This document shows positions 1,013 through 22,903 of a DNA stretch of 64,000 bases, piece after piece. Where the stretch lies: positions 714 through 64,713 of IMG/VR virus record IMGVR_UViG_3300037851_000757. One strand, 5' to 3'. The stretch's first letter is position 1, and the number at the start of each line of letters is the position of its first letter. Under the pieces are notes generated by a model. It was not told where the DNA came from. It saw nothing but the letters and a program-made list of their open reading frames with translations, and did not search any database. The position numbers and the translations under genes are program-made. The stretch is from a virus.

Positions 1013-2188
1013 ATGAAAGAGTATACATCAGCACTCCTTCCGATGAAGGCCATCTACATGGGGCGGAACGTCAGACTTCCGGCCTTGATGAAAATCGCGG
1101 AACTGGCGGCTGATATCGCGGAGAATGGCTTACTCACCCCGATTTTGGTCTATGAAGTGAAACCGAGGGGTTTCGAAGTCATTCAAGGCCATCGGCGGCT
1201 GCACTCCATTCAATCGTTGGCGGAGGAAGCCTTCGAGAAGCACTTCTCAAGAGGAATTCCGGTGACTGTCGTAACCGGCGTTACCTATGACGAGGCGCAG
1301 TTGATGAAGGTCGATCATGGCAACGAAGTCGGCCTCTCCGATCCGATGGAAATCCAACTTTGCGGGAATATCCTCTTCTCGCAGGGCAAATCGGAAAAGG
1401 AAGCAGTTATTCGCCTGGCGGCTCTGATGGATAGAATTAAGCCCATGAAGAGCGAGAAGCTGAAGAAGTACCAGACAATGCTGGCCGACGCCAAGCTGCT
1501 CACCATCAAGGGAATGACCGAGGAAGCAAAGGCCAAGCTGAAGGATGCCGAGGATTTCCTGTTCAACTACCGGCGCGGGTATATCCAGAACATTCACAAT
1601 GCCTGGAGATGCCCCACGGTGGTCATGGCGGCCTTGTACCTGAAAGCAACTGGCACGGCTCCTGAGAAGGGAACGGATTTCTTCACCGAGCAGAAGCTGC
1701 CCAAGGGGATTACTTACCAGCACGTCACGTCTCTTTGGAAGGCTTTTGAGAAGGATCTCACCCACAAGGATGAGACTGGGAAGCTGAAGTACAACAAGAC
1801 GCTGCCCGGTCCAGACTTTACCGCCAAGTGGAATGAGATCTGCACGGAGCTGAACAAAGCGGCCGAAGATTCCGAGAGCGGAGGAACTCGCGCCAAGGCG
1901 ATGTCGGCCGGTGACATGGAGAAGGAGTTGACGGAAGGAAAATGGCAGTCAAACGGCTTCCAGATGCTCACCCGCCATCACCGGAAAGAAGAAGGCGTTG
2001 ATACGGCCCGCCTCATGGCTCTGGACAAACTGGCCTTCCTGGCCGAGCTGTTGTCCGAGCGCGCTCCGAAAGAATGGGCCGACGCCGTGGAACTGGCCGA
2101 GGGCATCATCAAGATCCAGACCGAAGCCCAGACGCAAGCGGTTAGAGTGGAAGCTCCTGCAAGGGCTTCCGGTGGCAAGAAGAAATAA
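1013..2188 (+). CDS. ParB N-terminal (ParB/Srx fold) domain protein 1
   Basis: LAADIAENGLLTPILV...EVIQGHRRL motifs. GGAGG precedes ATG 1013 (track start 977). The C-terminal part is unrecognised. Confidence 0.8.
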   Translation: MKEYTSALLPMKAIYMGRNVRLPALMKIAELAADIAENGLLTPILVYEVKPRGFEVIQGHRRLHSIQSLAEEAFEKHFSRGIPVTVVTGVTYDEAQLMKVDHGNEVGLSDPMEIQLCGNILFSQGKSEKEAVIRLAALMDRIKPMKSEKLKKYQTMLADAKLLTIKGMTEEAKAKLKDAEDFLFNYRRGYIQNIHNAWRCPTVVMAALYLKATGTAPEKGTDFFTEQKLPKGITYQHVTSLWKAFEKDLTHKDETGKLKYNKTLPGPDFTAKWNEICTELNKAAEDSESGGTRAKAMSAGDMEKELTEGKWQSNGFQMLTRHHRKEEGVDTARLMALDKLAFLAELLSERAPKEWADAVELAEGIIKIQTEAQTQAVRVEAPARASGGKKK

Positions 2189-2211
2189 GCAGTTGATTCG
2201 GTAAATCAACC

Positions 2212-2241
2212 GGAGAGGCCATCTCTTGGGTGCCAAGATCC
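2212..2241 (-). repeat. Right arm of the inverted repeat; 2229-2241 is also complementary to 2506-2518
   Basis: GGAGAGGCCATCTCTTGGGTGCCAAGATCC read directly from the sequence. Confidence 0.85.
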
Positions 2242-2255
2242 AGAACGGAGAGCCT

Positions 2256-2462
2256 ATGGCAAATAGCATCGAAGTCTGCATCAAAACCTTTCTCGATGCC
2301 GAGAAGAAGGCAAAGATTGCAAACGATGAAGCCAAACGTGCCTTAAGAGACTTGATGGAAGTTGCGATTGATTATAGAGCAATTGGATTGCTCCAGCTCA
2401 ATCTTCCTGCTATCCGTCATCTTGAGAGGGACTTGTGGAGATTGTCCCAGGCTTCACAATAG
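2256..2462 (+). CDS. Small hypothetical protein
   Basis: Track ORF 2226..2462; GGAG precedes ATG 2256 (MANSIE). Confidence 0.6.
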   Translation: MANSIEVCIKTFLDAEKKAKIANDEAKRALRDLMEVAIDYRAIGLLQLNLPAIRHLERDLWRLSQASQ

Positions 2463-2617
2463 TAATGTTTCTTATCACGATAGTCGGGATGTTCCTATAA
2501 AAATCGGATCTTGGCACCTGTTATTTATAGCTTTTTAAAAAATAGCAGGACTGCGACCCCACGACTCCAGCAGTACTGCGCCCAAAAAATACCTCTTGAT
2601 TCTCAAATCAAACCTCC

Positions 2618-2648
2618 AGCGGCGGGCGTCGAGGGGTGCGCCGCTTTT
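2618..2648 (+). terminator. Possible intrinsic terminator of the rightward unit
   Basis: AGCGGCG...CGCCGCT stem followed by TTTT; the loop is long. Confidence 0.35.
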
Positions 2649-2996
2649 GGCTTCTTATAATGCGCCAGAATCGGGGCTGCGATTTTTAAACTACCTTTTG
2701 AAAAATTAATAAGGCGCGAGAGTGTGGCTGTGGGAAAAGAAAAACAGTTCTTTTAAACGAGATCTCCAGAATCAACATACCAGAATCAAAATCAAAGAGA
2801 TAGAACAGTAACATTTATTCAAAATGACAAAAAGTGTCTCACTAATATGAGACACCTTTTGCCAAAAAAGAGAAAAAACTCAACAAATTGATGCAGGTTT
2901 TTCGCCAATGTCTCACATTACTGGTCAATTTGAGACAATCTAACTTTCCTAATAATATCAGCAAGTTACCATTTTCTTACTAACTATTATAAAATT

Positions 2997-3023
2997 ATCT
3001 AATCTAATCTAATCTAATCTAAT
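2997..3023. repeat. (AATCT)n pentanucleotide tandem repeat in an AT-rich non-coding region
   Basis: ATCT AATCT AATCT AATCT AATCT AAT. Confidence 0.8.
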
Positions 3024-3206
3024 AAAAATATATATAGAGAATATAAATCCAGATAGTCTCAGAATCGGGTTTCCTAAGAATATCAGCGACTTAGCTATCT
3101 GGCAAGAAATTGCACGATAGAAAAATTTTCGGCGAAAACCTAAATCAATTTTTCGACTTTTTCCAAAAACTCGTCTAAAATTACTCAAATTTTTAATTAG
3201 AAAAAT

Positions 3207-3470
3207 TTAGAATCTAACAACCCAAACCTCCATCCACCCGGTTTTTTCCGGATCAAAAATGCCCTTCGGCACTTTTGTCCGAAAGATTTCCACAATCTCA
3301 GAAATGCCAAGAGCCTTTTTTGCAAAATTCTCGACATTCTCAGGCTTGGCGCTCGCCTTCATCCGAATGTATAGTTGCCGGTCATTTGCGTCGATGCGTT
3401 GAACCCACTTTTCCATCGTAAACACGCTCCTTGACAATCCCTCTGGTCTTGTCGTAGGTGTATTTTTCAA
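3207..3470 (-). CDS. Hypothetical protein
   Basis: Last ORF of the leftward arm; the true start may be an internal Met. Confidence 0.5.
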   Translation of the reverse strand: MKNTPTTRPEGLSRSVFTMEKWVQRIDANDRQLYIRMKASAKPENVENFAKKALGISEIVEIFRTKVPKGIFDPEKTGWMEVWVVRF

Positions 3471-3639
3471 CTACTGTCCCCTTGCTGTAGACCCTCACCT
3501 TCTCGACTCCCGACGATCCCATTCTATAATATTCCTGTTGAGCCGGCACCTCCCGTTTAACCTTAACTCGAATCGTTTCCGCGTAAAGACCTCCCGAAAC
3601 TCCAATGCTGATTCCCAAAATCAAGAAAAAGATCTTCAT
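3382..3639 (-). CDS. Small exported or membrane-anchored protein
   Basis: Hydrophobic N-terminus MKIFFLILGISIGVSGGLYA; GGAGG SD; start overlaps the upstream stop. Confidence 0.6.
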   Translation of the reverse strand: MKIFFLILGISIGVSGGLYAETIRVKVKREVPAQQEYYRMGSSGVEKVRVYSKGTVVEKYTYDKTRGIVKERVYDGKVGSTHRRK

Positions 3640-4547
3640 AAAACCTCCAGCAATGCCGAATGCTTGTAGAGATTATCGAGAGCCTGTTGTTTCAGACTGT
3701 CTAAAACAACCCCCGATTTACAGGCTTCCCAAATAGACTGTATTCTTTTCCACAGGCCTATCTGAAATCCCTCAGAAATAGTGTTTCGATGAGACGCCAC
3801 TCTTATTACTGGAAACTGTCCTCCTCCCCTACAGCAAAGTTGGTGAACGGTTGTTAGAAATTCAGAGCCGACAGGGGTCCCAAGTATCCAAGAGTAAATG
3901 CTTAGTTGCGTCGCCCATGATTTATCAACATCTTCTAAAGGAAACGAAGAGACCATCAGCCCGTACCTCATTTTGGGCATCACGTCTTTATGGAAGCCCC
4001 GACGCTCGCCAGCATCATAAAGCTCCATGTACCCTTTTCGAGGAGAGGTAGTCTTAGAAGACATATACCCATTGACTTTCCAATCATGAACGATCTTACA
4101 CCCCGCCCGATTCTTGTAAAAAATATCAGGCTTTCCTAAAAGTACGACCCCGGCTTCCTCCTTTGTGTGCGCCACGCGATTCTCGATTTGAAACTCAAAA
4201 CGAGGCGTATCTTCCGCTCCTTGTAAGTCAAGCAAGAGATCTGCCAATGCCCCGGATTTCCGGTAGCACTCAAAAGCCCAGGCTCCATTTTGCATCGCCC
4301 AGTCTCTATTATGGCTCTCTACTTGATTTTCGAAAATCTCAACAAAGTCGAAACCGCGTAAGCTACCAAATAGAGAGCGCGTTAAAAAGCTCTTGACATA
4401 GGCATCAAAAGCAGCTCCAATAGCCATTGCTTGAGTTTGAGGAGTCCGAGGCGGACGAAAATCTGCAAGATACTGTAAATAAAATGCTTCTCGATCATCC
4501 TCCCATAACATAATTGCTGTGGGTGACAGGTAACGAATTTCCTTCAT
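3636..4547 (-). CDS. PD-(D/E)XK nuclease-family exonuclease
   Basis: YLSPTAI...C/D-x-FYLQY-type N-terminus, LLGKPD...IVHDWK catalytic pattern and QLSIY motif. Confidence 0.75.
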   Translation of the reverse strand: MKEIRYLSPTAIMLWEDDREAFYLQYLADFRPPRTPQTQAMAIGAAFDAYVKSFLTRSLFGSLRGFDFVEIFENQVESHNRDWAMQNGAWAFECYRKSGALADLLLDLQGAEDTPRFEFQIENRVAHTKEEAGVVLLGKPDIFYKNRAGCKIVHDWKVNGYMSSKTTSPRKGYMELYDAGERRGFHKDVMPKMRYGLMVSSFPLEDVDKSWATQLSIYSWILGTPVGSEFLTTVHQLCCRGGGQFPVIRVASHRNTISEGFQIGLWKRIQSIWEACKSGVVLDSLKQQALDNLYKHSALLEVL

Positions 4548-4834
4548 TTTATTCTCCTCCGAAGAATTTCAAGTTGTTCCTCCGCTTCCCCTATTCCTTT
4601 CTTTATCTGCTTCTTCAAGATTCCGAGTTCCGACTCTTCAATTTGTCGATTTACAGAATCAAGACGAGCAAGCAGGTTCATAATATGTTGCCAATGAGAC
4701 TTTAGTTCTGCTGCCCCTATATGCCCTTTGCAGATGTAACTCCCAGGCTCCAGATAGATCTCTGCTTCCTCACTTCCACAAAGAGCGCACAAAAAAGAAG
4801 TTTTTAGTTTGTCGATTTTTTGTTCGTTGTCCAT
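4544..4834 (-). CDS. Hypothetical protein with a Cys/His Zn-finger-like segment and a coiled coil
   Basis: CALC...CKGH followed by heptad-rich sequence. Confidence 0.6.
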   Translation of the reverse strand: MDNEQKIDKLKTSFLCALCGSEEAEIYLEPGSYICKGHIGAAELKSHWQHIMNLLARLDSVNRQIEESELGILKKQIKKGIGEAEEQLEILRRRIK

Positions 4835-9649: not shown

Positions 9650-10232
9650 CTGTCTCCTCCAGACTTTTATTTAGAATTTTTTTAAGTTCATAATCAATAT
9701 ACCCTAAAGGATTGTAAATTTTTCCAAGACTGTTCCACGGTCTTGGAAACAATATAGACCATCCTCCAGCTCTGGAAAATCTCCTACAAGTTTTTTCATG
9801 ATCATCCAATAAAATTGAGAATCTTGAAGCAAGCAAACTTTTGTCTGGACAAAAAATCACTTTATTACTTTTCACGTATTCTGGAAGATAAGTTAAATAC
9901 CAATCAGCACATTTACCAAGACAGCTTCGAGAAAGTGGAACACTGGTCACAATAAAAACTTGTGAAAATTCAAAATATTTTTTTAGTAATTGAAACAAAT
10001 CGAAAGCTTCTTCTGTTGGGGTCATTTTATCCCAGGATAGGCTATCTAATTCTTTTCCCCAATCTTTTCTTGAGAATCCAAGAATGTCTCGAACATCAGT
10101 TTGATTTGTCCAATTAAAAGTTCGTTGATAGCGTTTTTCACAGGTTCCCACAAAGTCTCTAATAACTCCATCTGAGTCAATAAAGATTTTAAATACCACT
10201 TTTTTTCCTCCAACGTTCTCTAATCTTTTCAA
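9570..10232 (-). CDS. HAD-family 5'(3')-deoxyribonucleotidase
   Basis: IFIDSDGVIRDF and LLDDH motifs. The likely start is GTG 10199 after GGAGG. Confidence 0.8.
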   Translation of the reverse strand: MKRLENVGGKKVVFKIFIDSDGVIRDFVGTCEKRYQRTFNWTNQTDVRDILGFSRKDWGKELDSLSWDKMTPTEEAFDLFQLLKKYFEFSQVFIVTSVPLSRSCLGKCADWYLTYLPEYVKSNKVIFCPDKSLLASRFSILLDDHEKTCRRFSRAGGWSILFPRPWNSLGKIYNPLGYIDYELKKILNKSLEETDGEIGVPTFSTPIEIEEAWGRRLVLE

Positions 10233-10752
10233 TAGTTTTTTGTATTTTTGACTTGCTACAATTTAGTTCTTCCGCAATTTGACGAATGGCTCGTTCTTCA
10301 AGTCGAAGAGATAAAACATCTTTTTCAAATTTAGATAACTGTAAATCTTCGATAGACTCTTTCAACAAGAGGGCATAAAAACCATTATAAGAAATTTTTG
10401 AAATGATAGAAAAATCAGGGTCATTAAAAATGATTGGGTAGATTTCGGAAATCTTAAAAGGTCTTTTTTCATTAAGTGCTTTTAGTCTGGCTTTCTTTAT
10501 ATAAGATGTGGGGAGATAAATAAGTGGGATCTTTTTTAATTCTTCAAAAAGATATCGTCGAATATTTAAATAAATAATTGCTCCTGCATACTCAAATTTC
10601 TTTTGAGAGATAACAATTCTGATTCCATGACACATCCCTTCAAGGGCAGCACTTTTAAGGTCATCTTTATGCTTGGGGAATTTTGTTGTATATCTTCTTG
10701 CTGTTGCTTCAGCTAATTTTTGGAACTTTTTTAAAAGTTCCTCTGATGTCAT
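10189..10752 (-). CDS. Sigma-70-like transcription factor (regions 2 and 4)
   Basis: DDLKSAALEGMCHGI region-2-like segment and LSKFEKDVLSLR...IRQIAEELNCSKSKIQK HTH; AAGGAGGT SD. Confidence 0.75.
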   Translation of the reverse strand: MTSEELLKKFQKLAEATARRYTTKFPKHKDDLKSAALEGMCHGIRIVISQKKFEYAGAIIYLNIRRYLFEELKKIPLIYLPTSYIKKARLKALNEKRPFKISEIYPIIFNDPDFSIISKISYNGFYALLLKESIEDLQLSKFEKDVLSLRLEERAIRQIAEELNCSKSKIQKTIEKIRERWRKKSGI

Positions 10753-10770: not shown

Positions 10771-10891
10771 TGATTTGATTTATATAATAAAAAAAACATG
10801 GTCTTTTGTAATATGCGTTTAACTATAGGCAAAAGTTACAGACCTTCAGATTTGATTTGATTTATAAAAGCTGCTTGACCTGATTTGATTT
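10771..10891. promoter_or_regulatory. Upstream control region of the sigma-like gene
   Basis: Three TGATTTGATTT copies (10771, 10853, 10881) and copy 2 of the 30-bp element (10811-10840). Confidence 0.6.
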
Positions 10892-11351
10892 CACCCACAA
10901 GCCAAGCCTCATGCACAAGATCAATTTCTCTTACACTGATTTTAGAAATCTTCGGAGAGCTTGGGTCATAAATAGCCCCAGAAAAATCTAATACTTTAGC
11001 ATGAGACTCATAGATTAGAATTGCTTGGTTTCCAATAAGTCTAACAAAGAACCTCTCTATAGCATACAGTGGGTCATAAATTAATTTTGCATATCTTTGA
11101 TCTTGGCTCGGACTTGAAGCTGGAAACTTCTCAATTGGAAATAAACACTTTCCGTGAAGGATAAAAAGATCTTGGATTTCTTGAATATGAATTCCTCTTA
11201 AATTTTTCGGTGGAGGGAAATCCTTCCACCAGATTTCTTGGCCGTCTGTTTTTAATACAGCTTGTAAAATTCCAATATCAACATCTAAAAGCATTGCTGC
11301 ACAATAAAGAAGACATTGTTGTTTACCTGGAGTTTGAAGTAAGTGTCTCAT
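10836..11351 (-). CDS. Peptidase C39-like (papain-fold) protein
   Basis: Q-x5-QCLLYCAAMLL N-terminal Cys motif and a later H-x3-LD. Confidence 0.5.
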   Translation of the reverse strand: MRHLLQTPGKQQCLLYCAAMLLDVDIGILQAVLKTDGQEIWWKDFPPPKNLRGIHIQEIQDLFILHGKCLFPIEKFPASSPSQDQRYAKLIYDPLYAIERFFVRLIGNQAILIYESHAKVLDFSGAIYDPSSPKISKISVREIDLVHEAWLVGEIKSGQAAFINQIKSEGL

Positions 11352-11832
11352 CTTTTTTCTCCAAAAGGGATTCCGGAATCTCTACGCAGCATTCACCGAT
11401 AGTTTTAAAATCCCCTGAGATTTTGCAAGCAAAAATAATAACTCGTTTTTGCTTCTCTTTAAGTTTCAAAACAAGAGGAATAAAATCACTATCGGCAGAC
11501 CCAAGGACTACCATATCAAGATTTTCTGCTGCTTCAAGAATATCAACAGCTATTTTTACATCATAGTCAGCTTTCTTTATAATCTGCCCATGTTCTGTAA
11601 AAGATTTTGGGGTTTGATATTTTGGTGTAAACCCAATCTGTTTTAACATATGAATAAATCCAGCGGCCTGATTTTTAACTTGTGCTCCATAGGCATTTGC
11701 GATTGCAACATCTCCAAGTCCCTGGATATATTCAAGGTATTTCTTGTAATTTAATTTTCTTCCTTTGTACTTTTTATTAATGCAGTAGTAAAGATTACTG
11801 ACATCAATAAAAACTCCTATTTGCTTTGGCAT
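11323..11832 (-). CDS. NYN-domain (LabA/DUF88, PIN-like) protein
   Basis: VFIDVSNLY, KKADYDVKIAVD, LGSADSDFIPLV. Confidence 0.85.
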   Translation of the reverse strand: MPKQIGVFIDVSNLYYCINKKYKGRKLNYKKYLEYIQGLGDVAIANAYGAQVKNQAAGFIHMLKQIGFTPKYQTPKSFTEHGQIIKKADYDVKIAVDILEAAENLDMVVLGSADSDFIPLVLKLKEKQKRVIIFACKISGDFKTIGECCVEIPESLLEKKDETLTSNSR

Positions 11833-12743: not shown

Positions 12744-13094
12744 CTATCTATAGACACCTGTATATTGCCACCAGTTGTGTCTGGTAAATAATTTTTTATA
12801 TTCTTCTTCTGTGGCACCAACAAGAACCCAGACTCCTGAACCATTGGCACACAATAATGGAAAAGTTTCATGTTGAGCTGGAGTAAAAGGATCACCAGAT
12901 CTTTTAGGATCTTTTACTTCAACCCATCTATGTCCATAGCGTGCGTGAGTACAAAAAAGATCTGGAAATCCTGACTGATACATATTTCCATGTGTTGCTT
13001 TAACAAACCAGCCACGATACCGTAAAAAAGTAATAATAGCTTCTTGTATTCCTTTCTCTGGTCCATGTTTCTTTCGAGGAATAAAAGGTTTCAT
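12744..13094 (-). CDS. VRR-NUC family nuclease (probable junction resolvase)
   Basis: PEKGIQEAI...GFPDLF...WVEVK...TPAQ. GAGG precedes ATG 13094. Confidence 0.8.
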   Translation of the reverse strand: MKPFIPRKKHGPEKGIQEAIITFLRYRGWFVKATHGNMYQSGFPDLFCTHARYGHRWVEVKDPKRSGDPFTPAQHETFPLLCANGSGVWVLVGATEEEYKKLFTRHNWWQYTGVYR

Positions 13095-13095
13095 A

Positions 13096-13356
13096 TTATT
13101 CCTCGGCAAGAACAGATAAGACAAGACACTGAATTGCCCTTATCATGAGCTTTTCATATTCTTCACGCTGCGTCGTCGCTACCCGAATTGCCCGACATTC
13201 CTGGATGTACTCCATCGCTCTCATCTCCAGATAGTTCTTGTCTGCTATCTTTACGAGCACGTTCAGGTTTCCCGGCTCTCTCGGATTGAACTGGGCTTGC
13301 GACAGGATTTTGCGGATGCTCTTTATACTTGGAAATGAACTCTTTTTCGAACTCAT
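13096..13356 (-). CDS. Hypothetical protein overlapping the upstream gene
   Basis: GGAGAGGAG precedes ATG 13356 (MSSKK); ends just before the VRR-NUC start. Confidence 0.55.
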   Translation of the reverse strand: MSSKKSSFPSIKSIRKILSQAQFNPREPGNLNVLVKIADKNYLEMRAMEYIQECRAIRVATTQREEYEKLMIRAIQCLVLSVLAEE

Positions 13357-14253: not shown

Positions 14254-16593
14254 CTATTTCTTTGATGCCCATGAATCTAAATGTGTTTTCCAATCCATTT
14301 TAATTAGAGGAACCTTTTCTTTAAAAGACTCTACTGTTTCTTTAACAGTTCGAGCAACTATTGGTACATATTCAGGATGTGTTGGAGAAAGAATTTCATC
14401 ATGGACATTCATAGGTTGAACCCTCCAATGATTTATTCCACATGGCTGAATGTCCCAAATTTTTCTTTGAACTTTTTTAGTAATTTCGGCACCTGAAGAT
14501 TGAATAACATGATTTGCAGCAGCACGCATATTGGCTGCTTGTTGTGCAAAAGCGGCCGCAAATAAAGCAGATCTAAGAGCACCAGAAGCAGTTTGTTCTC
14601 TATCTCTTCTGATCACTTTGATCGCCATTTTAAGCCAGCTTCTTGGCGGATCATTTGCAAGATCAAAAAGAGCTTTAACGATTTGGTTTTCTAAAGTAAA
14701 ATAACGTCTGAATCCAAACAGGGATTCAATATATTCAGAAGGTTCATGCCATTCCACTTTTGTTCCAATACCGCCAGGTTGTCGCATTGAACAGAACATA
14801 TCAAATATCTTTTTTCGTTCTCTTCCCCACACGATATATCTCGCACACCACCTTCGGTATGCTTCTTCAGCAGTTTTTTCAGGAATCCCAACTCTATTAG
14901 ACAGTGTGTAGGCTTCACCTCCGTAAAGGAGAGCGAAGACTCCATTTTTTGAGCGCCCATAAAAATCTTCGTAAAAATTAGCGGCTCCATCTGATTTCAA
15001 AATCTCCTCATAGGTTTTATCTGGAAAGAGATAAACGCCAAAAAGAGCATGAATCTTTTTACCAGACATTAAGTCGGATCTAAGATCCGGGTCAGCATAA
15101 GCAGCATCGGCAAGGCATACTTCAAAACCAGAAAAATCACCACCGCATAAAACAGTGTTCTCCAATGCAAGAGGGAAACATTTTCTAACATAGTTCGATT
15201 TTTTGATTCCCTGTGGATTGAGTCCGCCAGTACCTGCCATGCGAGAGCTGCGAGTACCGATAACAACAAAGTCAGCATGGAATCTCCCTGCAAGAAGAAG
15301 TTTGTCATAGACTTCTATTTCCTTTTTGGCTTTTCGAGCTTTAATGATTTCAGCAGCACGCTCGGCAGCCGGATGAGGGTCTTTTCCAGGAATAAGACCA
15401 TCATCGCAAGAATTGCACCCCATGCCAGAACAAGCACTACAAACCTCAGATACACGCCATTGGGCAATTTCTTCAAGAATAATTCCTTTTGTTGTGATTT
15501 TCCCATCAACACTCATTACAACTTTTTCTGCTTCTGATAAAACTTCTTCCAAATAAGCTCGGACCACAGCGTGGGAATTATAATTGAATTTTCGTCTTGT
15601 TCCTTCTTCTTTTGCAATCGCTTTTTGACGAAGTTCGACAATGGCTTCGGTGTCAATTCTAAAGCCACGCCAGCGCACAGCCCCAACCATGCAAGTAAGA
15701 ACAGAGTCATCATCATCTGGTTCTGGAGAACCGAAAAAATGATATAACCCGCGAGTATCAGCCACATCATCATAAGCATATTCTCTTGCAAGACTATTGT
15801 ACGACCAATAGTTAACGTGCTGCTGGATTCTAAACGGCCAAGAATATTCCCACATTCCACGGATTTCAGAATCAGAGCTATTTAAAAATACTTTAGCAAA
15901 TGGGGCATACCCAAGCTCTGCCGGGGATGCTTTAGCTGGAAGAGAAATATCAGTATAAAGAAGTCGGTCATCTTTTGCTACCCCAGTATCTATAGCTAAG
16001 GCTTTTAAAGCTGAACTTGGAGAAAATTTTAAAACAAGATCCTTGAATCCTGGAATCATTGCTCCAACATCATCTTTAAGATCAAATACTTGCCATCTTA
16101 TTGTTTTATCTTCTCTTCGAGCAAAATAAATATCCTTTAATGGAATTCTTTTATTTAATTCTGCACAAAGCTGCCAAGCAAGAACGGTAGGAACTTTTTT
16201 GATACGGATATCTTCTCTATCCATTGTTGATTGATATGGGCCTTTGCGTGCGTGCATCATAATGTCAAAGGCTTTTACTGGCTTTAAACATAATCCGTCT
16301 CTTGCATATGGCTCCGCATTGTAGTATTCTTCAATGCAATCAATAGGATGTTTATTTTTATCTTTTAAAAGAGAAAGAGTTGTATAAAGTTGACAAAGAT
16401 GAAAATGATCAAAACTTAGATTAAATCCACAGACTCCTCCATCATGTAGCATAAATTCTTCAATAAGTTCAAGAGTTTCTTGTACGGGCCTGTTCCATGG
16501 AGAATAAAGATTAATGGGGCCTTCATCAAAAGCATATTGAATAAGAACTATCGGCCCGTGAAATCCACAAGTTTCTGTATCATAAAAAATCAT
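14254..16593 (-). CDS. polA: Family A DNA polymerase with a 3'-5' exonuclease domain
   Basis: DTET (ExoI), GFNLSFD (ExoII), YAYDD (ExoIII), TRSSRM, DFSGFE (motif A), KNGVFALLYG (motif B), VHDE (motif C). Confidence 0.93.
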   Translation of the reverse strand: MIFYDTETCGFHGPIVLIQYAFDEGPINLYSPWNRPVQETLELIEEFMLHDGGVCGFNLSFDHFHLCQLYTTLSLLKDKNKHPIDCIEEYYNAEPYARDGLCLKPVKAFDIMMHARKGPYQSTMDREDIRIKKVPTVLAWQLCAELNKRIPLKDIYFARREDKTIRWQVFDLKDDVGAMIPGFKDLVLKFSPSSALKALAIDTGVAKDDRLLYTDISLPAKASPAELGYAPFAKVFLNSSDSEIRGMWEYSWPFRIQQHVNYWSYNSLAREYAYDDVADTRGLYHFFGSPEPDDDDSVLTCMVGAVRWRGFRIDTEAIVELRQKAIAKEEGTRRKFNYNSHAVVRAYLEEVLSEAEKVVMSVDGKITTKGIILEEIAQWRVSEVCSACSGMGCNSCDDGLIPGKDPHPAAERAAEIIKARKAKKEIEVYDKLLLAGRFHADFVVIGTRSSRMAGTGGLNPQGIKKSNYVRKCFPLALENTVLCGGDFSGFEVCLADAAYADPDLRSDLMSGKKIHALFGVYLFPDKTYEEILKSDGAANFYEDFYGRSKNGVFALLYGGEAYTLSNRVGIPEKTAEEAYRRWCARYIVWGRERKKIFDMFCSMRQPGGIGTKVEWHEPSEYIESLFGFRRYFTLENQIVKALFDLANDPPRSWLKMAIKVIRRDREQTASGALRSALFAAAFAQQAANMRAAANHVIQSSGAEITKKVQRKIWDIQPCGINHWRVQPMNVHDEILSPTHPEYVPIVARTVKETVESFKEKVPLIKMDWKTHLDSWASKK

Positions 16594-17444
16594 TCGGTCT
16601 GTCCATCTAAAGTAAATGGGATATATTCAAGATTGTTTTCTTTTGCAAAAGCTTCCAGAGAAAGAACTAAGTCTCCGGTGCTAATTTCACCAGCACACCA
16701 GGACATTGTTCGAGTATGAAGACCATTTCCGATTCCAGAATCTTGAATATGAGCCATCATATTAAAGATCTCAGAGCGTTTCCGTTGTCTCTTTTCTCTC
16801 ATTACTTCTTGTTTTGTCCGGTTGATTTTAATATCACCAGTTCTTGCTTTTCCTTCTTTTAGTTCTTTTATAGCAGAAAAAATTTGAGTAACATCACCAG
16901 TTCTGTTGTAGATTGTATAAAGATCTCGAATGTTCTGTTGAGTAAAAAATCCAGCAGCTGCTTCAAGATGAACTTCTTTTGGAAGACTTAACAACATAAA
17001 ACGAACTTGAACCCATCCTCTTGACATCCCAAGAACAGAAGCAGTATCCATCTCATTAAGACCGAGATCTTTCATTCTCTTGATTGCCAATGCTTCTTGG
17101 TAAATGTTGAGATTTTGCCTTTGAATATTCTCGGCCAGATTGATTTTTAGAGCATCAACTTCACTCAAAATCGGTTTTATTACAGCAAAAATATATTTTT
17201 CTTCATTGACACGATGAGCCATCAAACGACGAAAACCAGCAGCAAGCCGGTATTTTTTTCCAGTCTCCATTTGTTTGGCATCATCGTAAAGGGCAACTAC
17301 AACAGGCTGATGAAGCCCATTTACTTTGATGTCATTTGCAAGATCGATAACATCAATTGGAGTAATCTTCCCACGGCAGTTAAAATTTTCATCATCATGG
17401 ATTTCTGAAATCAAAATTCTTTCTACATTCATTTTGTGATCCAT
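16590..17444 (-). CDS. parB: ParB/RepB/Spo0J-family protein 2 (ParB-N plus HTH)
   Basis: LANDIKVNGLHQPVVV, AAGFRRL, ENIQRQNLNIYQEA, HTH TASVLGMSRGWV. Confidence 0.88.
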   Translation of the reverse strand: MDHKMNVERILISEIHDDENFNCRGKITPIDVIDLANDIKVNGLHQPVVVALYDDAKQMETGKKYRLAAGFRRLMAHRVNEEKYIFAVIKPILSEVDALKINLAENIQRQNLNIYQEALAIKRMKDLGLNEMDTASVLGMSRGWVQVRFMLLSLPKEVHLEAAAGFFTQQNIRDLYTIYNRTGDVTQIFSAIKELKEGKARTGDIKINRTKQEVMREKRQRKRSEIFNMMAHIQDSGIGNGLHTRTMSWCAGEISTGDLVLSLEAFAKENNLEYIPFTLDGQTE

Positions 17445-17605
17445 TGTCTTTGCTCCTCCTCAAATGAATAAAGTAAGGTGATTGTTACATCTGTACTTTT
17501 ATACTCATCCAAAACAACTTGAAGCTCGCCAATAGTCAAAGGACCGATTGCATGAATCTCAAAGAGAGAGTGAGGATGAACAATTATAACATATTTTTCA
17601 CCCAT
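17429..17605 (-). CDS. Small hypothetical protein (58 aa, not in the track)
   Basis: MGEKYVIIVHPH...QWITK fills the gap and overlaps both neighbours. Confidence 0.45.
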   Translation of the reverse strand: MGEKYVIIVHPHSLFEIHAIGPLTIGELQVVLDEYKSTDVTITLLYSFEEEQRQWITK

Positions 17606-19607
17606 TTATATTCTCCTCATATTTTTTCTCAAGAACTGATAGTTCAGCTTGGAACTCTCCAAGAGAAACTGATTGAAGTTCTTTTTTCAGTTTCAAATTA
17701 TTATAGACATATTCATCAGAAGGCAAGAGAAAAAGATCTTTAATTATTAGCCCTCTATTAGAATCCATACCGATTCGATGAGCACGATCCTCTGACTGCA
17801 TTCGTGCTTCTCCTTTAAAGCTATTTGAAAAGAAAAATTCAATAGGAGAAGCAGTTAAGGTTAAAGCCATTCCTCCAGCTTCTGGATTTCCTACAAAACA
17901 AACTCTCGGATAGGTTTCTCGTAATTCTTCTGCTTTAGGATGCGTTCGATCCATTGCTGATAAAAGTTCATCAGAATCAGCAAGTTCTCCGGAAGGAAGT
18001 TTTGCTAAATAGCCTCTTCCATCAACTCTAAGAACTGCCCATCCTTGTTGCAGAGCGATTCGAACTAATCTATCCAAAGTTCCAGTAAAGCCACCCCATA
18101 CGATAAACCGCCCAATATCTTCAGCAGCATCCAATTCTTCAATAAATACTTCATCTTTTGGTGTCCCAATCTCATATGTAACTGTCTCATAAACAGGTTC
18201 CGTTCCTTTTCCGCCGCAAGTAGGGCATTCAATAATTTGTGTTTTTATTTCCGATAAAGAATCCTTAATGTCTGTTGTAACTTGTTCATAATGATTTATA
18301 GAATCGTTTTCAAAAGGAGCTTCAATAGTCTTTTTTCCAGCACATAAACGACAAGTCTGTTCTCCTTTCTCTTGTTGTTTGTATTGGAATCCATCAGCAA
18401 GTTCTCTCAATAATGTCAATGCCTCAATCGCTCTTGTTGCCATTTTTTTAATTAATTTTGCTGCTTGTAACATCTCTACTGACGGTTTGGCTCTTATAAT
18501 TTCATATTGTTTATCTGGCAAATCTAAACAGTCTTTTTTAAAGAAAACAACAACAAGTCCCTTTGTCCTTTCTCGAAGAAGAGCAACTTCATTTATTGAT
18601 TCTTTAAATGCATGAGCGGCGGCTGCTTGTTTGGGGTCTACATCAAAAACCCCGCCTAATTCAGTATGAATAGGGTCATTTCTATATTGGCCACAGATAG
18701 AACATTTTTCTGGGTCGTTAAGCCATGTTACAAGATGAGGATAAACTCCTCCAGTAATTAGGCTCTCTCGTTGTTCAATTATACAAAGTCGTTTTTTAAA
18801 AGCAGCAATACTTCCTTCTTTTAGGAAGCCAGGGCAAGCTACTTCACATTGATGCCACCAATCAGTTGGATCTTTTGGAGCAGGCGATCCGGACATTTCG
18901 ACAATATAACCATCTCTTCCGTACTTTTCTCTGATATTGTTGGCAAGATGCAAAGCTGCCTGAGATCGTTGAGCGTTTGGACTTTTGATTTTTGAGGATT
19001 CATCAAAACAGACAATCTTTGGAACTGGTCTGATGTCAGTCCAGTTTTTAAGCTCTCTAACAAGTCCTTCGTAGGTGAACATTCGCGGTCTGATTTGAGC
19101 ATCCCATTTAAGAAGCTCTCTTCCGACTGCTTTGACACCTGCTCTTGGACCAATGTACCACGCTTCTTCATTTGATACCGCGAATCCCGTTTTTTTGGCA
19201 TAGTCGAGAACCTCAATAAAGGAAAGAGTTTTACCTGTTCCCATCTCAGCAGCCCAAATTCCATGATGAACTGTTAAAAGATGAGAAGTCATATGTTTTT
19301 GATGATCATAAAGAGTACGATTAGTTTCAAAAGAAATAAATTCTTGCTCATAGGGTTCATATGTATTTATCCCCATGAGATAATGCAAATTGAACCAATT
19401 TCTATGGCTATTTTTGATTGACCAAATCTTTCTGGGATTAACTTCATCATAACCATGCCACTTTGCCCCTTCCATATTTCTGATTTCATCAAGCAGAATT
19501 TTATTATAGGCAAATTGGCACTCAATTTTTGACGGAGTTATCCGGAGTTTGATTACTTTCCAAAAATTCCCCGCTCGGACTTTTATCTCTTCGATTTTTT
19601 CGCTCAC
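17598..19607 (-). CDS. SNF2-like superfamily 2 helicase with Zn-finger insertions
   Basis: YDHQ, EMGTGKT, FDESSKIK, SGSPAP, GGMALTL, QSEDRAHRIG. Confidence 0.88.
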   Translation of the reverse strand: MSEKIEEIKVRAGNFWKVIKLRITPSKIECQFAYNKILLDEIRNMEGAKWHGYDEVNPRKIWSIKNSHRNWFNLHYLMGINTYEPYEQEFISFETNRTLYDHQKHMTSHLLTVHHGIWAAEMGTGKTLSFIEVLDYAKKTGFAVSNEEAWYIGPRAGVKAVGRELLKWDAQIRPRMFTYEGLVRELKNWTDIRPVPKIVCFDESSKIKSPNAQRSQAALHLANNIREKYGRDGYIVEMSGSPAPKDPTDWWHQCEVACPGFLKEGSIAAFKKRLCIIEQRESLITGGVYPHLVTWLNDPEKCSICGQYRNDPIHTELGGVFDVDPKQAAAAHAFKESINEVALLRERTKGLVVVFFKKDCLDLPDKQYEIIRAKPSVEMLQAAKLIKKMATRAIEALTLLRELADGFQYKQQEKGEQTCRLCAGKKTIEAPFENDSINHYEQVTTDIKDSLSEIKTQIIECPTCGGKGTEPVYETVTYEIGTPKDEVFIEELDAAEDIGRFIVWGGFTGTLDRLVRIALQQGWAVLRVDGRGYLAKLPSGELADSDELLSAMDRTHPKAEELRETYPRVCFVGNPEAGGMALTLTASPIEFFFSNSFKGEARMQSEDRAHRIGMDSNRGLIIKDLFLLPSDEYVYNNLKLKKELQSVSLGEFQAELSVLEKKYEENING

Positions 19608-19616
19608 GCTTTTCTC

Positions 19617-19859
19617 CTAACAATCAAGCACTATATGGCAATTTTCTTCATACTGAGAACACTGTTGTCTTTCAGGGTCTCCTTGTGAAACAGGATCTCC
19701 TTCTCTCCGAATCGTCCAGCCAGAATTAATTCCAGTAGGGTTCACTCGATTTGCGAAATCCATAACCTGTTCATCGGTATCAGTTTTGGGAACACAAACC
19801 TGTATAGAAAAAACTCCTTGTATTATCACTTCTCTATTCATATCGCCCCCAATAAGCAA
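19617..19859 (-). CDS. Small Cys-containing hypothetical protein
   Basis: Operon packing; the start is probably the second Met. Confidence 0.6.
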   Translation of the reverse strand: MLIGGDMNREVIIQGVFSIQVCVPKTDTDEQVMDFANRVNPTGINSGWTIRREGDPVSQGDPERQQCSQYEENCHIVLDC

Positions 19860-20292
19860 TCATTTTTTCTTGCTTCTCTGTATCTTTTAACTCCACTGGC
19901 CACCAATATGGTGCAGAAACATCAATATCAGTCCAATTAAATTTTTTATAATAATCCGGGAGTTTCCGCATCAAATTGCATTTATGTGATTTATGCAATC
20001 GTTCATCCCCTAACCAGGGTGGAAAAAATATTTTGATTGGAACTTCATAAAATAACATATCATTATCAAAACCTCGGGACACCCATTCATGAATAATACA
20101 ATTTGTATAGTATTTTAAACAGTCCTCCCATCCCTGCCACATCCTTACTACAACATGATTGTGCCAACGATTTTGAGGATTTTTTAAAGCATTTAAAATT
20201 TGCATTGATTCTACACGCTGTTTTCCTAATCGTCTATAATCTAAGATAGTAGCACACTTTTCGAAGTCTGGGTCTGGTAAAAAAGTTTGCAT
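19834..20292 (-). CDS. denV: Pyrimidine-dimer DNA glycosylase (DenV-like)
   Basis: MQTFLP...LDYRRLGKQRVE..QIL, H..V.MW, PPWLG, HKSHKCNL.RK. Confidence 0.8.
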   Translation of the reverse strand: MQTFLPDPDFEKCATILDYRRLGKQRVESMQILNALKNPQNRWHNHVVVRMWQGWEDCLKYYTNCIIHEWVSRGFDNDMLFYEVPIKIFFPPWLGDERLHKSHKCNLMRKLPDYYKKFNWTDIDVSAPYWWPVELKDTEKQEKMIAYWGRYE

Positions 20293-20295
20293 TAT

Positions 20296-20523
20296 TTATC
20301 TTTCTATTTTCCTTTTACAACAGGGGCAAATATCTGTTTGGGTTGTTATTCTCTTCTTGTTGAAAGTGCAGAAATGCCCTGGATCATCGTCATACCAGTC
20401 CCTAAGTAGGAGATTTTCCTCTTCAAGAAAACGCAAATAATCCATCTCTTCGTCTGAGAGGATGTATTTTTCAAAATCTTCTTCTGTGAATTTACTACGG
20501 GGGAGCTTAATAAGTTCTTTCAT
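20296..20523 (-). CDS. Small hypothetical protein
   Basis: Operon packing; HFC...CPCC. Confidence 0.55.
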   Translation of the reverse strand: MKELIKLPRSKFTEEDFEKYILSDEEMDYLRFLEEENLLLRDWYDDDPGHFCTFNKKRITTQTDICPCCKRKIER

Positions 20524-21034
20524 ATTTCGGTCCCATAACTGTTAGGCCATTGACTTCATTTTTCTCCACATCACCCCAAACTTCCTGGAAGCCAAGACGC
20601 ACGAATAGGGCATAAAGATTGTGGAAAAAGATGTGGAGTTCTTCTTTTTGAGAAGAACTCAGTCCTCTACGGACAGCCAAATACCAGTCAGCCACAGTAG
20701 CCGAAATAATTACGAGGAATTCTTTGCGACCTTTTCTAACGAGGTAATTTAGATTGGGGAAATCAGTTAGGAGGGCTGTTACTAAATCACACTCAAGAGC
20801 ACAAATAAAACTTATGCTAAAATGCTCAAAAGTGTTATTAAGAAAATATCCTCTTCTTAAATGATGGAGTGGGTGATTTTTCAGATCTAATGTTGCTAAA
20901 TATGCAACAGGAGATTCTATTTTTATAGTAGTTGCACCCAAGCCAGAAGAAGGACTAAATCCAAGTACTTCTTGGACTGTTTTAATATAGATTTCCCAAT
21001 CAGGTCGAGTTACAGCTAATGGGCTGATTTTCAT
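20507..21034 (-). CDS. Degenerate ThyX-like protein
   Basis: FEHFSISF and IISATVADW align by eye with ThyX IEHGVLSV and ITTANFREW; the RHR..S..Q.S.R signature is absent. Confidence 0.45.
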   Translation of the reverse strand: MKISPLAVTRPDWEIYIKTVQEVLGFSPSSGLGATTIKIESPVAYLATLDLKNHPLHHLRRGYFLNNTFEHFSISFICALECDLVTALLTDFPNLNYLVRKGRKEFLVIISATVADWYLAVRRGLSSSQKEELHIFFHNLYALFVRLGFQEVWGDVEKNEVNGLTVMGPKYERTY

Positions 21035-21046
21035 ATTTCTCTTAAT

Positions 21047-21075
21047 GAGAGGGGTAGAAGGCTTCTACCCCTCTC
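21047..21075. terminator. Strong hairpin (13-bp perfect stem) after the SSB-like gene
   Basis: GAGAGGGGTAGAA-GGC-TTCTACCCCTCTC; no U-tract on the coding strand. Confidence 0.5.
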
Positions 21076-21085
21076 TGAAGATAGA

Positions 21086-21733
21086 TTATCTCGTTCTGGA
21101 AGCTTTTTCATCTTCCTGAACCCGCTCGACGGTCTTTTGTGGAGGATTAATAAATTTCTTGTATTCCTCCTCCAAGTCCTCTTGATCTGGCAAATCAAAT
21201 ACTGTGGTGCATCGTTCTGCTTTTGCGCTGAACCAGGTATATTTGGCGTTTGAAATCTGCACACCTTTCAAGGTTACAGCTTGTCTCATCATTTCATTTA
21301 CAACTGTCGCTTCTCTCCTCATTGATTTTGTCCCCATGAAGAAAGTTGCGAATTTCCGAGCGTCAGGAATCCAGACCAGAAATTCTGGTCCATACATGGC
21401 ACCCGAATCTTTTTCACCAGAAAGATCACGAATACGTGCAAATTCAGGATCTTTGGTATTGTAAATCGAAATGATTTCATCTGAAATTTGAAGAGCCTTT
21501 GGCCGCCAAGCGATAACCAGAATATTTACTTCTTTTCCGAGATCCTTCATGTTTTGATCTCGCACAATCGCAAAATGATTGATTGGGAAAGCTCCAGTTT
21601 TGCAAACTTCAGAAGAAGCGGTCATGAGTTGAAGTCGAGGAAGATAGTCTCCTGTTTTCGTAGCTTCAGAAAAATCATCTTCAGTATAGACTTGTGGAAC
21701 TTCTCCGGTAGGCAGGATAATGAGTTCGTTCAT
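21086..21733 (-). CDS. Putative ssDNA-binding protein
   Basis: YLPRLQLMT N-terminal motif, beta-rich core, charged C-terminus, position in the replication arm. Confidence 0.5.
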   Translation of the reverse strand: MNELIILPTGEVPQVYTEDDFSEATKTGDYLPRLQLMTASSEVCKTGAFPINHFAIVRDQNMKDLGKEVNILVIAWRPKALQISDEIISIYNTKDPEFARIRDLSGEKDSGAMYGPEFLVWIPDARKFATFFMGTKSMRREATVVNEMMRQAVTLKGVQISNAKYTWFSAKAERCTTVFDLPDQEDLEEEYKKFINPPQKTVERVQEDEKASRTR

Positions 21734-21774
21734 TTTCTTGATGTCCTTTCTGAATGTTAAATGATTTTAAAAAT

Positions 21775-21809
21775 ACAGGGGTCTATACCCAGTCAATATA
21801 GACCCCTGT
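21775..21809. terminator. Intrinsic terminator-like hairpin downstream of ParB-like gene 3
   Basis: ACAGGGGTCTATA-9 nt-TATAGACCCCTGT with T-runs on both sides. Confidence 0.7.
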
Positions 21810-21841
21810 TTTACTACACCGACCTGAAGTGGAGGTGTGCT

Positions 21842-22903
21842 TCAGGCAGGCGGGGGTGCAGTAGCAGGAGCCGGTGCTTCTACTTCAGGAGCCTTCCCAA
21901 GATCAGGATAAGGAAGTGCTTCACCCTTCATCTCTGCTTCTGCATTGGCTGCGGCTTTACGAGCGAAATCAGCCTTCTTGTCAGCGACTTCGGCTTTTCT
22001 CTTTTCCCGCTCTGCGCGCCGCTTTGCGTCTTCTTCTTTCTTCGCTTTTTCCCGCGCATCGAAATCAGCTTTCTGAGTTTCGAGACTTACGGGGTCCATG
22101 TGCAGGAGCCAGGCGACAGCCAAAGAGAAGGCAGCTTCAGCCGTCTTCGTTTTGGTTGCCTTGATCAGCTTCGGGCCGACTTCGGGAGTTTCCAGTTCGG
22201 TTTTGACTTCTTTGAGTTTGCGGAGATGTGCAATCGGCTGGAAAACTACTTTCGTGGCGTCCTGACCCTGGCGCTTTGCGTCCTTGATCTCTTTGACCCT
22301 TGCGTTGACGAGTGGGATAAATTCGTCGGGGACTTGCGTGATTGCCCGATCAACAAAATTCGCGAGTTCTTCGGCGGGCAATTTGGCCAGGGCGTAGGCA
22401 TTTGACAGACTGATTTGCCCACTGTTGATGAGTTCAAGGATCTGGGGATTGTCGATCTTGTTGAGGCCAAGGCGTTGCGAAATCCACATTGGAGACTTGC
22501 CAAGACGCTTAGCAAGTTCCGCCTCGGTCATAAGAGGATTGCGGGCCAAAATCCGTTTGAGCTGCTGGCTGTATTCCGCCGGACGGGTTTCGACCTTGTG
22601 AATGTTGGCCATGATTTGGGCTTCCAACATCTGATCTTCGTCCAACGGGACGATATCAACTCCGATTTCGGAAATCCCTGCATCTTTGGCCGCGCTGAAA
22701 CGATGAAGACCGTCGATCAACTCGAAGTATTCTTCTTTCGTCTCAGGGTCTACTCGGGGACGCACAGTGATTGCACCCAAGAAGCCTTTTTCCTTCATGG
22801 ACGCAACCAGCCCCAAATACTCCTCCGACTGGCGGTTGACCGTGCGCAGGGCAACCGGGTTCTCTCTGATTTGCGGAATCTGCACCTTACGAAGATCACC
22901 CAT
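21842..22903 (-). CDS. parB: ParB/RepB/Spo0J-family protein 3 (ParB-N, HTH, charged coiled coil, Pro/Ala tail)
   Basis: LVASMKEKGFLGAITV, LIDGLHRF, ANIHK, HTH MTEAELAKRLGKSPMWISQRL; AGGAGG SD. Confidence 0.88.
   Translation of the reverse strand: MGDLRKVQIPQIRENPVALRTVNRQSEEYLGLVASMKEKGFLGAITVRPRVDPETKEEYFELIDGLHRFSAAKDAGISEIGVDIVPLDEDQMLEAQIMANIHKVETRPAEYSQQLKRILARNPLMTEAELAKRLGKSPMWISQRLGLNKIDNPQILELINSGQISLSNAYALAKLPAEELANFVDRAITQVPDEFIPLVNARVKEIKDAKRQGQDATKVVFQPIAHLRKLKEVKTELETPEVGPKLIKATKTKTAEAAFSLAVAWLLHMDPVSLETQKADFDAREKAKKEEDAKRRAEREKRKAEVADKKADFARKAAANAEAEMKGEALPYPDLGKAPEVEAPAPATAPPPA

Follow-up and report, generated by a model that had tools for sequence, protein, structure and literature searches.

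ParB proteins are the founding CTP-dependent molecular switches, and the N domains of bacterial ParBs recruit SMC and ParA. A ParB/SopB-type protein is also carried by the phage-plasmid N15, whose Sop system influences phage gene expression through dispersed centromere sites. Here we analysed a 64,000-nucleotide stretch of viral DNA (bases 714-64713 of the 64,750-bp IMG/VR virus record IMGVR_UViG_3300037851_000757; hereafter the window), which encodes three ParB-fold proteins, named ParB1, ParB2 and ParB3 in order of position. ParB3 and ParB2 are core genes in the replication module of this phage; ParB1 is an accessory gene found in few relatives.

Phages are known to carry orphan ParB-fold proteins, a class without an assigned role; many of these folds bind ATP or GTP, and those on mobile elements may act in phage-host interaction (PMC12704722). 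That survey covers cultured-phage and gut-phage sets, stresses fusions (methyltransferases, domains of unknown function), and includes the ParB of phage-plasmid P1. Like its orphans, the proteins described here have no ParA partner, no ParA-binding motif and divergent Box I and Box III; unlike the fusions, ParB2 and ParB3 are stand-alone proteins with a ParB domain plus a helix-turn-helix (HTH). Neither PMC12704722 nor the other literature searched describes a conserved stand-alone ParB-plus-HTH pair fixed in a replisome operon, and we found there no prior description of a universally conserved pair in which the hydrolysis residues are lost in a family-specific way and one member has the codon signature of an abundant protein. 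The one phage ParB type with a demonstrated role is the 5mYOX-associated ParB176, which activates a thymine dioxygenase, and mutation of its conserved nucleoside triphosphate (NTP)-pocket residues did not abolish function (PMC13229309). Thus, a conserved pocket need not mean CTP switching. The 5mYOX-associated ParBs also work without ParA, but they have no DNA-binding domain and lie beside a TET/JBP dioxygenase, whereas ParB2 and ParB3 have an HTH and no Tet_JBP dioxygenase (PF12851) was found in the record.

KorB, the CTP-dependent sliding clamp and global repressor of the IncP-1 plasmid RK2 (8qa8/8qa9), likewise combines an N-terminal ParB/CTPase fold with an HTH and is reported to act at promoter-proximal palindromes without needing ParA there (PMC11790492). 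As a functional model for a ParB that works at such palindromes independently of ParA, it comes closest. The ParB3 family profile matches KorB (8qa8, E 1.7e-5), and the top Foldseek hits include KorB at 25% identity; the KorB domain PF08535 reaches 17.9 bits in ParB3, under its cut-off of 22.3, and has no match in ParB1 or ParB2. KorB has a GERR motif, is an active CTPase, works with the partners KorA and TrbA, and adjoins incC (parA), whereas ParB3 has GLHR, has lost both hydrolysis residues, has no ParA and no identified lock partner, and lies in a phage replisome operon.

By sequence profile and fold, the closest solved relatives of ParB2 and ParB3 are KorB and the chromosomal proteins ParB/Spo0J and Noc (1vz0, 6sdk, 6t1f, 7bnk, 7nfu, 7ol9), the chromosomal proteins giving the best matches. 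ParB2 is Spo0J-like in its ENxQR Box III, its two Box II arginines and its Q46-P47, and Spo0J with Noc offers a precedent for two ParB paralogues acting at different sites in one genome. Both phage proteins fall far below the Noc model TIGR04285 (71.6 bits for ParB2 and 62.4 for ParB3, against a cut-off of 315). Unlike Spo0J/ParB, the phage system has no parA, no LG[KR]GL motif and no canonical parS, its catalytic Gln and Glu are replaced, and the C-terminal region of ParB3 is not recognisably a canonical ParB C-terminal domain.

Two ParB-fold proteins in the replication operon

A sequence-only reading of the window had assigned ParB-N domains to three open reading frames (ORFs), with the motifs GHRR in ParB1, GFRR in ParB2 and GLHR in ParB3, and an HTH in the latter two. 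Pfam and fold matches place the ParB/Srx fold in all three proteins, the motifs are as read, and HTH_ParB scores 23.5 bits in ParB2 and 30.9 bits in ParB3. ParB2 and ParB3 reach 35.2 and 37.5 bits, respectively, for Pfam ParB_N (PF02195; cut-off 26.3) and 66.4 and 74.8 bits for the partition-protein model NCBIfam TIGR00180 (cut-off 58.45). All three proteins match PHROGs 4715, 3264, 1033 and 6218, annotated as ParB-like partition protein.

Beyond its HTH, ParB3 continues into a helical region that is followed by a charged helix of 55 residues. When residues 186-335 are modelled as two copies, residues 225-269 form the predicted interface, with a score of 0.65 against 0.02 for the best of three controls, a predicted local distance difference test (pLDDT) value of 80, and at least 98% of contacts in agreement between runs. 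The 0.65 mark was attained by 20 of 30 one-chain pair structures and 1 of 23 single-chain structures, counts that are rough and that involved a custom alignment. Since ParB C-terminal dimers have already been solved, the pass may partly mirror likeness to known structures. On this modelling, the C-terminal part of ParB3 is predicted to homodimerise. Atlas searches with the C-terminal parts of ParB2 and ParB1 gave weak ParB/RepB/KorB-like leads only.

To place these genes among their relatives, we used 80 related viral loci obtained by an alignment-based scan (a single-protein scan had given 2), searched the 27 longest related records (47-112 kb) whole, and compared gene order in the 26 longest loci. 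Homologues number at least 795 for ParB3, 987 for ParB2 and 40 for ParB1. In every one of the 27 long relatives, two or more ParB_N genes share a strand at a distance of 4.5-11 kb. The gene order in the 26 longest loci is fixed: primase-helicase, a control region of 300-500 bp, ParB3, a single-stranded DNA-binding (SSB)-like gene, a variable stretch, SNF2 helicase, ParB2 and PolA. ParB3, the SSB-like gene, the SNF2 helicase gene and the primase-helicase gene are each present in 26 of 26 loci; ParB2 is found in 25 and PolA in 24, the misses lying beyond locus ends. PolA follows ParB2 in all 24 loci that reach it, immediately in many of them and with ORFs inserted in between in some. In the window, the stop of ParB2, which had been read as coupled to polA, overlaps the PolA start, and ParB3, as had been stated, is the first gene of its arm, directly following the divergent control region.

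The idea of one conserved triple does not survive this comparison: ParB2 and ParB3 are universal and syntenic, and ParB1 is sporadic and sits in a separate accessory island. Sporadic retention among relatives, which the sequence-only reading had counted as speaking against its own proposal, is true of ParB1 only. Six records hold three to five ParB_N genes, the extra ones differing in size, so that ParB-fold extras come and go in the clade. Relatives G016, G020, G022, G024 and G014 (75-112 kb), with three to five ParB_N genes, include short stand-alone versions of 141-154 amino acids.

No partition partner accompanies these proteins. Profile searches of the whole 64,750-bp record found no ParA-type (PF13614, PF01656), ParM (PF06406) or tubulin-type (PF00091) NTPase and no tyrosine integrase (PF00589) or serine recombinase/resolvase (PF00239), extending to the entire record what had been noted for ParA and integrase in the window; a ParA just outside the window, which would have counted against the earlier proposal, is therefore also absent from the record. 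Among the 27 long related records, some of which have terminal repeats or are rated complete, none has a ParA above cut-off. The ParA-binding motif (L/F/I)G(K/R)G(L/F/I), as defined in PMC12704722, was found by regular-expression search in none of the three ParBs, and the window holds no canonical parS (TGTTNCACGTGAAACA) even with up to three mismatches allowed. These results agree with the ParA independence that had been suggested.

We then mapped the nucleotide pocket onto the residue roles of M. xanthus ParB (PMC13229309) through alignments to solved relatives. ParB3 retains the phosphate-binding residues R20 (=R54), R68 (=R95) and N100 (=N127) and the base-contacting residues S35 (=S68) and G40 (=G73), all invariant in 24 homologues. 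ParB2 retains R24, G43, R72/R73 and a full ENxQR Box III (E105-N106-x-x-R109), together with Q46-P47 in the Box I region; in 29 homologues N22, R24, G70, R72, R73, E105, N106 and R109 are invariant and G43 is nearly so. ParB1 retains N31, R33 and GHRR; in place of Box III it has K-x-D, which is invariant, and then H-G, which is nearly so. The Box II pattern GxxR is common to all three proteins, and canonical GERR occurs in none. The residues essential for hydrolysis in M. xanthus ParB are Q52 and E93 (PMC13229309). The sequence-only reading had named loss of the CTP pocket as a point against itself; the residues that bind phosphate survive, but all three proteins have lost the catalytic Gln and Glu, the Gln position being A18 in ParB3, N22 in ParB2 and N31 in ParB1. 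A CTP-dependent clamp can therefore stand only in the form of NTP binding with slow or no hydrolysis, and what we infer from the pocket residues is an NTP bound with slow or absent hydrolysis, no more.

Codon usage and the divergent control region

ParB1 and ParB3 are the GC-richest genes (GC 0.55 and 0.53; GC at third codon positions, GC3, 0.70 and 0.565), about three standard deviations over the gene mean GC of 0.385 (standard deviation 0.05). The major head gene ranks third (GC3 0.48), in line with the earlier remark that ParB1 and ParB3 share GC-richer codons with the capsid gene. ParB2, with a GC3 of 0.26, is low like the replication enzymes. In 56 of 57 related loci, spanning 34-61% overall GC, the GC3 of ParB3 exceeds that of SNF2, PolA and primase, with a mean excess of 0.18; it is also raised across relatives in the SSB-like gene and not in ParB2. 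Within the window, the GC shift of ParB3 lies at two-fold and four-fold synonymous sites, as in the major head gene. A GC3 bias that persists past synonymous-site saturation points to selection, and its resemblance to the bias of the capsid and SSB-like genes suggests that ParB3 is highly expressed and would be the abundant one of the pair. The coating or condensing of phage DNA that had been proposed for the ParBs thereby gains indirect support for ParB3, through a capsid- and SSB-like synonymous-site bias.

The divergent control region between ParB3 and the rightward arm contains repeated boxes. The word TGATTTGATTT occurs in seven exact copies in the window, in a palindrome upstream of ParB3, an inverted pair before the rightward arm, and a distant cluster abutting the ribosome-binding site (RBS) of a gene whose product weakly matches phage sigma factors. 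Among relatives, the 600 bp that precede ParB3 show a 44-fold enrichment of boxes, which are without exception arranged as two inverted pairs (about -60 to -95 and about -375 to -415), each close to one of the divergent genes. The box core, AATCAAATCA, occurs in 28 of 43 non-redundant loci, and no 10-mer of the module is shared more widely; GATTTGATT, the best-conserved non-coding word there, is arranged in inverted pairs between ParB3 and the primase gene. G004 and G013 likewise have a further box locus, 11-16 kb away from ParB3. A sigma-70 promoter scan of the control regions gave matches no more frequent than in shuffled sequence, and box presence shows no clean co-variation with the C-terminal 157 residues of the primase-helicase.

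We considered the 152-amino-acid, weak-HTH protein encoded between the control region and the primase-helicase gene as a box binder and rejected it. None of the roughly 80 related loci encodes a homologue, and in them the primase-helicase gene comes immediately after the control region, although the boxes are conserved there; absent from every relative, it cannot be the conserved binder, and its gene looks like a recent insertion. In L032 and L034, the control region has no GATTTGATT boxes, and three direct copies of TGTGGATAAC lie ~300-400 bp upstream of the ParB3 homologue. These DnaA-box-like decamers suggest that the control region may also serve as a replication origin. Other repeats occur in the same region, AACTTCGCTTC in L029 and AGATCAGGAT in L055.

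Candidate roles of ParB3 and ParB2

We propose, tentatively and as the likeliest of several readings, though one that may well be wrong, that ParB3 and ParB2 are ParA-independent, NTP-gated, long-lived clamps that act on the phage's own DNA and take part in replicating it and in controlling that replication. Both would be members of the ParB/KorB/Noc family placed in the replication module. ParB3 would be made first, probably in large amounts, would bind NTP with slow or no hydrolysis, and would dimerise through its C-terminal helical domain. It would load at specific sites, for which the best candidates are the conserved GATTTGATT boxes overlapping the promoters that diverge towards the primase-helicase gene and ParB3, and then persist on DNA as a long-lived clamp. 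By persisting there, ParB3 would coat or organise phage DNA during replication and also exert feedback on both replication operons. ParB2, whose gene lies between those for the SNF2 helicase and PolA, would be a low-abundance paralogue with a near-canonical phosphate pocket and a second, distinct role at the replisome. ParB1 would stand outside the pair, as a mobile, strongly codon-biased accessory ParB-fold gene of some relatives.

Several observations weigh against this proposal. The hydrolysis positions are substituted in ParB3 (Q52 by A18, E93 by L66) and in ParB2 (Q52 by N22, E93 by F71). In ParB3, H67 also replaces the first Arg of GERR and A99 the Box III Glu, so that the pocket may serve another ligand or none, and NTP binding and specificity of such folds are not predictable from sequence or AlphaFold3 (PMC12704722). 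The arms of the box pairs lie 0 to about 40 nt apart, depending on the relative, an unusual variation if one dimeric protein binds them, and the loss of boxes in about a quarter to a third of relatives does not cleanly co-vary with the recognition helix of ParB3 or of ParB2. The boxes might just as well be bound by the primase-helicase, in the manner of iterons, by a factor encoded elsewhere or by one of the host. The boxes contain a -35-like TTGATT and may thus simply be promoter elements. BLASTP detects no similarity between ParB2 and ParB3, so that the case for their working together is one of co-occurrence. Codon bias, finally, is itself a proxy for abundance.

Other readings share much of this evidence. 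ParB3, perhaps together with ParB2, might be a pure transcription regulator of the KorB/VirB type, acting on GATTTGATT operators at the promoters of both replication operons and the sigma-like gene to time an early-to-late switch, with no coating role. The boxes are suitably placed for this, promoter-proximal before ParB3 and before the primase arm and directly before the RBS of the sigma-like gene, and ParB3 heads an operon that it would autoregulate. KorB and VirB are reported to regulate without ParA (PMC11790492; 10.64898/2025.12.19.695565), and the profile match of ParB3 to KorB points the same way, although the Pfam KorB match is weak and under its cut-off. A capsid- and SSB-like codon bias fits a stoichiometric protein better, however, two ParBs would be needless, and the boxes do not cleanly follow the recognition helices; we regard a purely regulatory role as rather unlikely. 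An enzymatic role, as a nuclease, a kinase/NTPase or an activator of a DNA-modifying enzyme like the 5mYOX-associated ParBs, applies most of all to ParB1, with its degenerate Box III, invariant D113, nearly invariant H114 and structural matches to PadC and sulfiredoxin. There are phage ParBs known to activate thymine dioxygenases (PMC13229309), ATP or GTP is the ligand of many orphan folds (PMC12704722), and the phage encodes Dam, FkbM-type methyltransferases, ThyX and a ThyX-like gene. The record has no Tet/JBP dioxygenase, though, ParB2 and ParB3 carry full HTH DNA-binding domains unlike the 5mYOX activators, and the neighbours of ParB1 are small ORFs of no enzyme family; we consider this option quite unlikely.

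It is improbable, in our view, that the ParBs are directed at the host, binding its chromosome or partners (parS or Noc-like sites, SMC, ParA/MinD-type ATPases) and either disturbing segregation and division or recruiting condensin to phage DNA. The recruiting ability of bacterial ParB N domains and the expression of ParB3 first in its operon would suit such a takeover, and a part in phage-host interaction has been raised for orphan ParBs of mobile elements (PMC12704722). Against it stand the missing ParA-binding motif in all three ParBs, the lack of canonical parS in the window (a result silent on host sites) and the tight, universal embedding among replisome genes, which points to the phage's own DNA. 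Least of all do we expect a plasmid-like prophage whose ParBs serve as centromere-binding proteins and use a host ParA for partition, a reading we consider very improbable. ParB2 and ParB3 do pass TIGR00180, and the phage-plasmids N15 and, by the survey, P1 (PMC12704722) carry proteins of the ParB/SopB kind; but ParA, ParM, TubZ, integrase and the ParA-binding motif are all missing, the phage has a full replisome of its own, two of its three ParBs lie inside a replication operon rather than a par locus, and species genomes yield only discordant metagenome-assembled genome (MAG) contigs, none from an isolate.

The proposal of clamps on phage DNA can be carried further, to a version that we consider speculative and improbable. 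ParB3 would then be a hydrolysis-dead NTP clamp at SSB- or capsid-like amounts, loading at the GATTTGATT boxes beside the origin, spreading along the phage DNA and condensing replicating genomes into a ParB-type nucleoprotein body. This membrane-less replication compartment would concentrate the replisome, with ParB2 as the link to helicase and polymerase, and keep host nucleases off. If that were true, the physics of partition complexes would serve replication, not segregation, throughout an uncultured clade of lytic-type phages. The clade offers an unusually clean case, with two canonical-architecture ParBs selected inside a replisome operon in genomes of 47-112 kb and 34-61% GC, no partition ATPase, an invariant family-specific loss of hydrolysis residues, and one ParB bearing the silent-site signature of a very abundant protein. 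The role of a ParB clamp in a replicating lytic-type phage is thus a question approachable in vitro despite the uncultured hosts, with candidate DNA sites defined.

The ParB1 island and the phage

ParB1 differs from the core pair in distribution and setting. Its longest ORF begins at 977, and homologues together with a GGAGG 8 nt upstream favour a start at 1013. The ParB_N match is partial (residues 39-81), with 24.6 bits for the protein and 26.8 bits in a six-frame genome search, and TIGR00180 reaches only 29.6 bits. The AlphaFold2 model has a pLDDT of 89. Its N domain matches PadC (Z 11.7), KorB (Z 10.4) and sulfiredoxin (Z 9.2), and the best structural match is PadC of Myxococcus xanthus, a ParB-like CTP-binding adaptor (6ryk), with a root-mean-square deviation of 2.5 Å over 93 residues. 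In PadC the ParB-like domain is C-terminal and the protein links ParA to bactofilin, whereas in ParB1 the fold is N-terminal, with about 280 helical residues after it, and the protein is phage-borne and has no ParA. The second domain aligns, by model superposition, to the helical region of pNOB8 ParB and Spo0J. Invariant residues include N31, R33, G71, H72, R74 and D113, and H114 is nearly invariant.

A clear ParB1 homologue is present in 2 of the 27 long relatives, at 43% and 34% identity. Where present, ParB1 occupies the same site, in a small island on the opposite strand that separates the late operon from the end of the replication arm, with small ORFs without an enzyme family as neighbours. 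Homologues at 30-45% identity are also GC3-rich (0.74-0.75). We considered whether ParB1 is the same in kind as ParB3 by its GC richness and rejected this; both are GC3-rich, but they are distributed differently among relatives and lie in different genomic settings.

Long-range inverted repeats of 13-29 nt flank every gene of the ParB1 island (644-671/915-942, 945-973/2212-2240 and 2229-2241/2506-2518). The ParB1 homologues of L084 (1115-2617) and L085 (1309-2883) are bracketed likewise, by 27-nt arms of entirely different sequence, and in both a nested inverted pair surrounds a small ORF adjoining the homologue. Arms that differ in sequence and yet pair amount to compensatory change, which suggests either RNA stems that bracket cistrons, possibly as processing sites, or the terminal repeats of a mobile cassette. 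The positions of all features are given in Table 1.

Table 1 Positions of the ParB genes, their neighbours and candidate DNA sites in the window
Feature	Position	Strand	Remarks
Left arm of the 29-nt inverted repeat bracketing ParB1	945-973		93% complementary to 2212-2240
ParB1, accessory ParB/Srx-fold protein, 391 amino acids	1013-2188	+	Helical second domain, probably HTH-type
Right arm of the ParB1-bracketing repeat	2212-2240		Overlaps left arm of next pair (2229-2241/2506-2518)
187-amino-acid protein, weak phage RNA polymerase sigma factor match	10189-10752	-	phrog_351, E 2.5e-5
Second box cluster, three exact direct TGATTTGATTT repeats and one with 1 mismatch	10771-10891		Abuts RBS of gene 10189-10752
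NYN-domain nuclease	11323-11832	-	E 1e-27; in replication arm
VRR-NUC nuclease match	12744-13124	-	Just under Pfam cut-off (23.0 vs 23.8 bits), E 8e-5; in replication arm
Family A DNA polymerase (PolA)	14254-16593	-	Start overlaps ParB2 stop as ATGA
ParB2, core ParB, N domain and HTH	16590-17444	-	Near-canonical phosphate pocket; low GC3
SNF2-type helicase	17598-19607	-	Directly upstream of ParB2; phrog_62, E 6e-39
DenV-type pyrimidine-dimer DNA glycosylase	19834-20292	-	E 1e-21; in replication arm
SSB-like protein, second gene of the operon after ParB3	21086-21733	-	Atlas Pam3_Gp34/DUF5895 clusters; structural neighbours include gp32 and phi29 SSB; lead only
ParB3, core ParB, N domain and HTH	21842-22903	-	Predicted dimerisation domain 225-269; long charged helix 271-325
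Divergent control region, 476 bp	22904-23379		Between ParB3 and rightward arm
Perfect 22-bp palindrome of two TGATTTGATTT boxes	22997-23018		About 85-105 bp upstream of ParB3 start
Inverted TGATTTGATTT box pair	23303-23313 / 23332-23342		Before rightward arm
152-amino-acid protein, weak C-terminal HTH	23380-23838	+	Between control region and primase-helicase
Primase-helicase (DUF5906/D5-type)	23838-26528	+	Divergent neighbour of ParB3; kept in 26/26 long loci

The phage encodes its own replication set, comprising PolA, the SNF2 helicase, a D5-type primase-helicase, a ligase, an exonuclease, the SSB-like protein, ThyX and Dam, and in addition FkbM-type methyltransferases and a ThyX-like gene. 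Its structural module is of the tailed-phage type (major head protein, portal, TerL and tape measure). The 126-bp direct terminal repeat of the record (record positions 1-126 and 64625-64750) is a tandem run of a 13-bp unit, AAAAAATTTTTCT, so that circular completeness of the record is likely and not proven; the repeat, on which the record's class of complete is based, could be an assembly break within a tandem repeat rather than a true terminal redundancy.

No close relative at the DNA level was found among GenBank phages. The nearest protein matches in searches with ParB3, ParB2, PolA, TerL and the primase-helicase are all at most 37% identical, and no cultured relative therefore lends a function; identity to cultured phages is at best about 25% for TerL and about 30% for PolA. 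Among 185,579 species genomes, the ParB3 family gave three matches, all in MAG contigs (Methanomassiliicoccales, Opitutales and Patescibacteria) and none in an isolate genome, and these contigs of discordant taxa are read as mis-binned phage contigs. The stretch is present in two freshwater DNA metagenome runs, both of which may be its source, and no RNA runs containing it are listed. On this picture, the phage belongs to an uncultured, probably virulent freshwater clade. Its replication arm also carries a DenV-type pyrimidine-dimer DNA glycosylase, an NYN-domain nuclease and a VRR-NUC nuclease match (Table 1).

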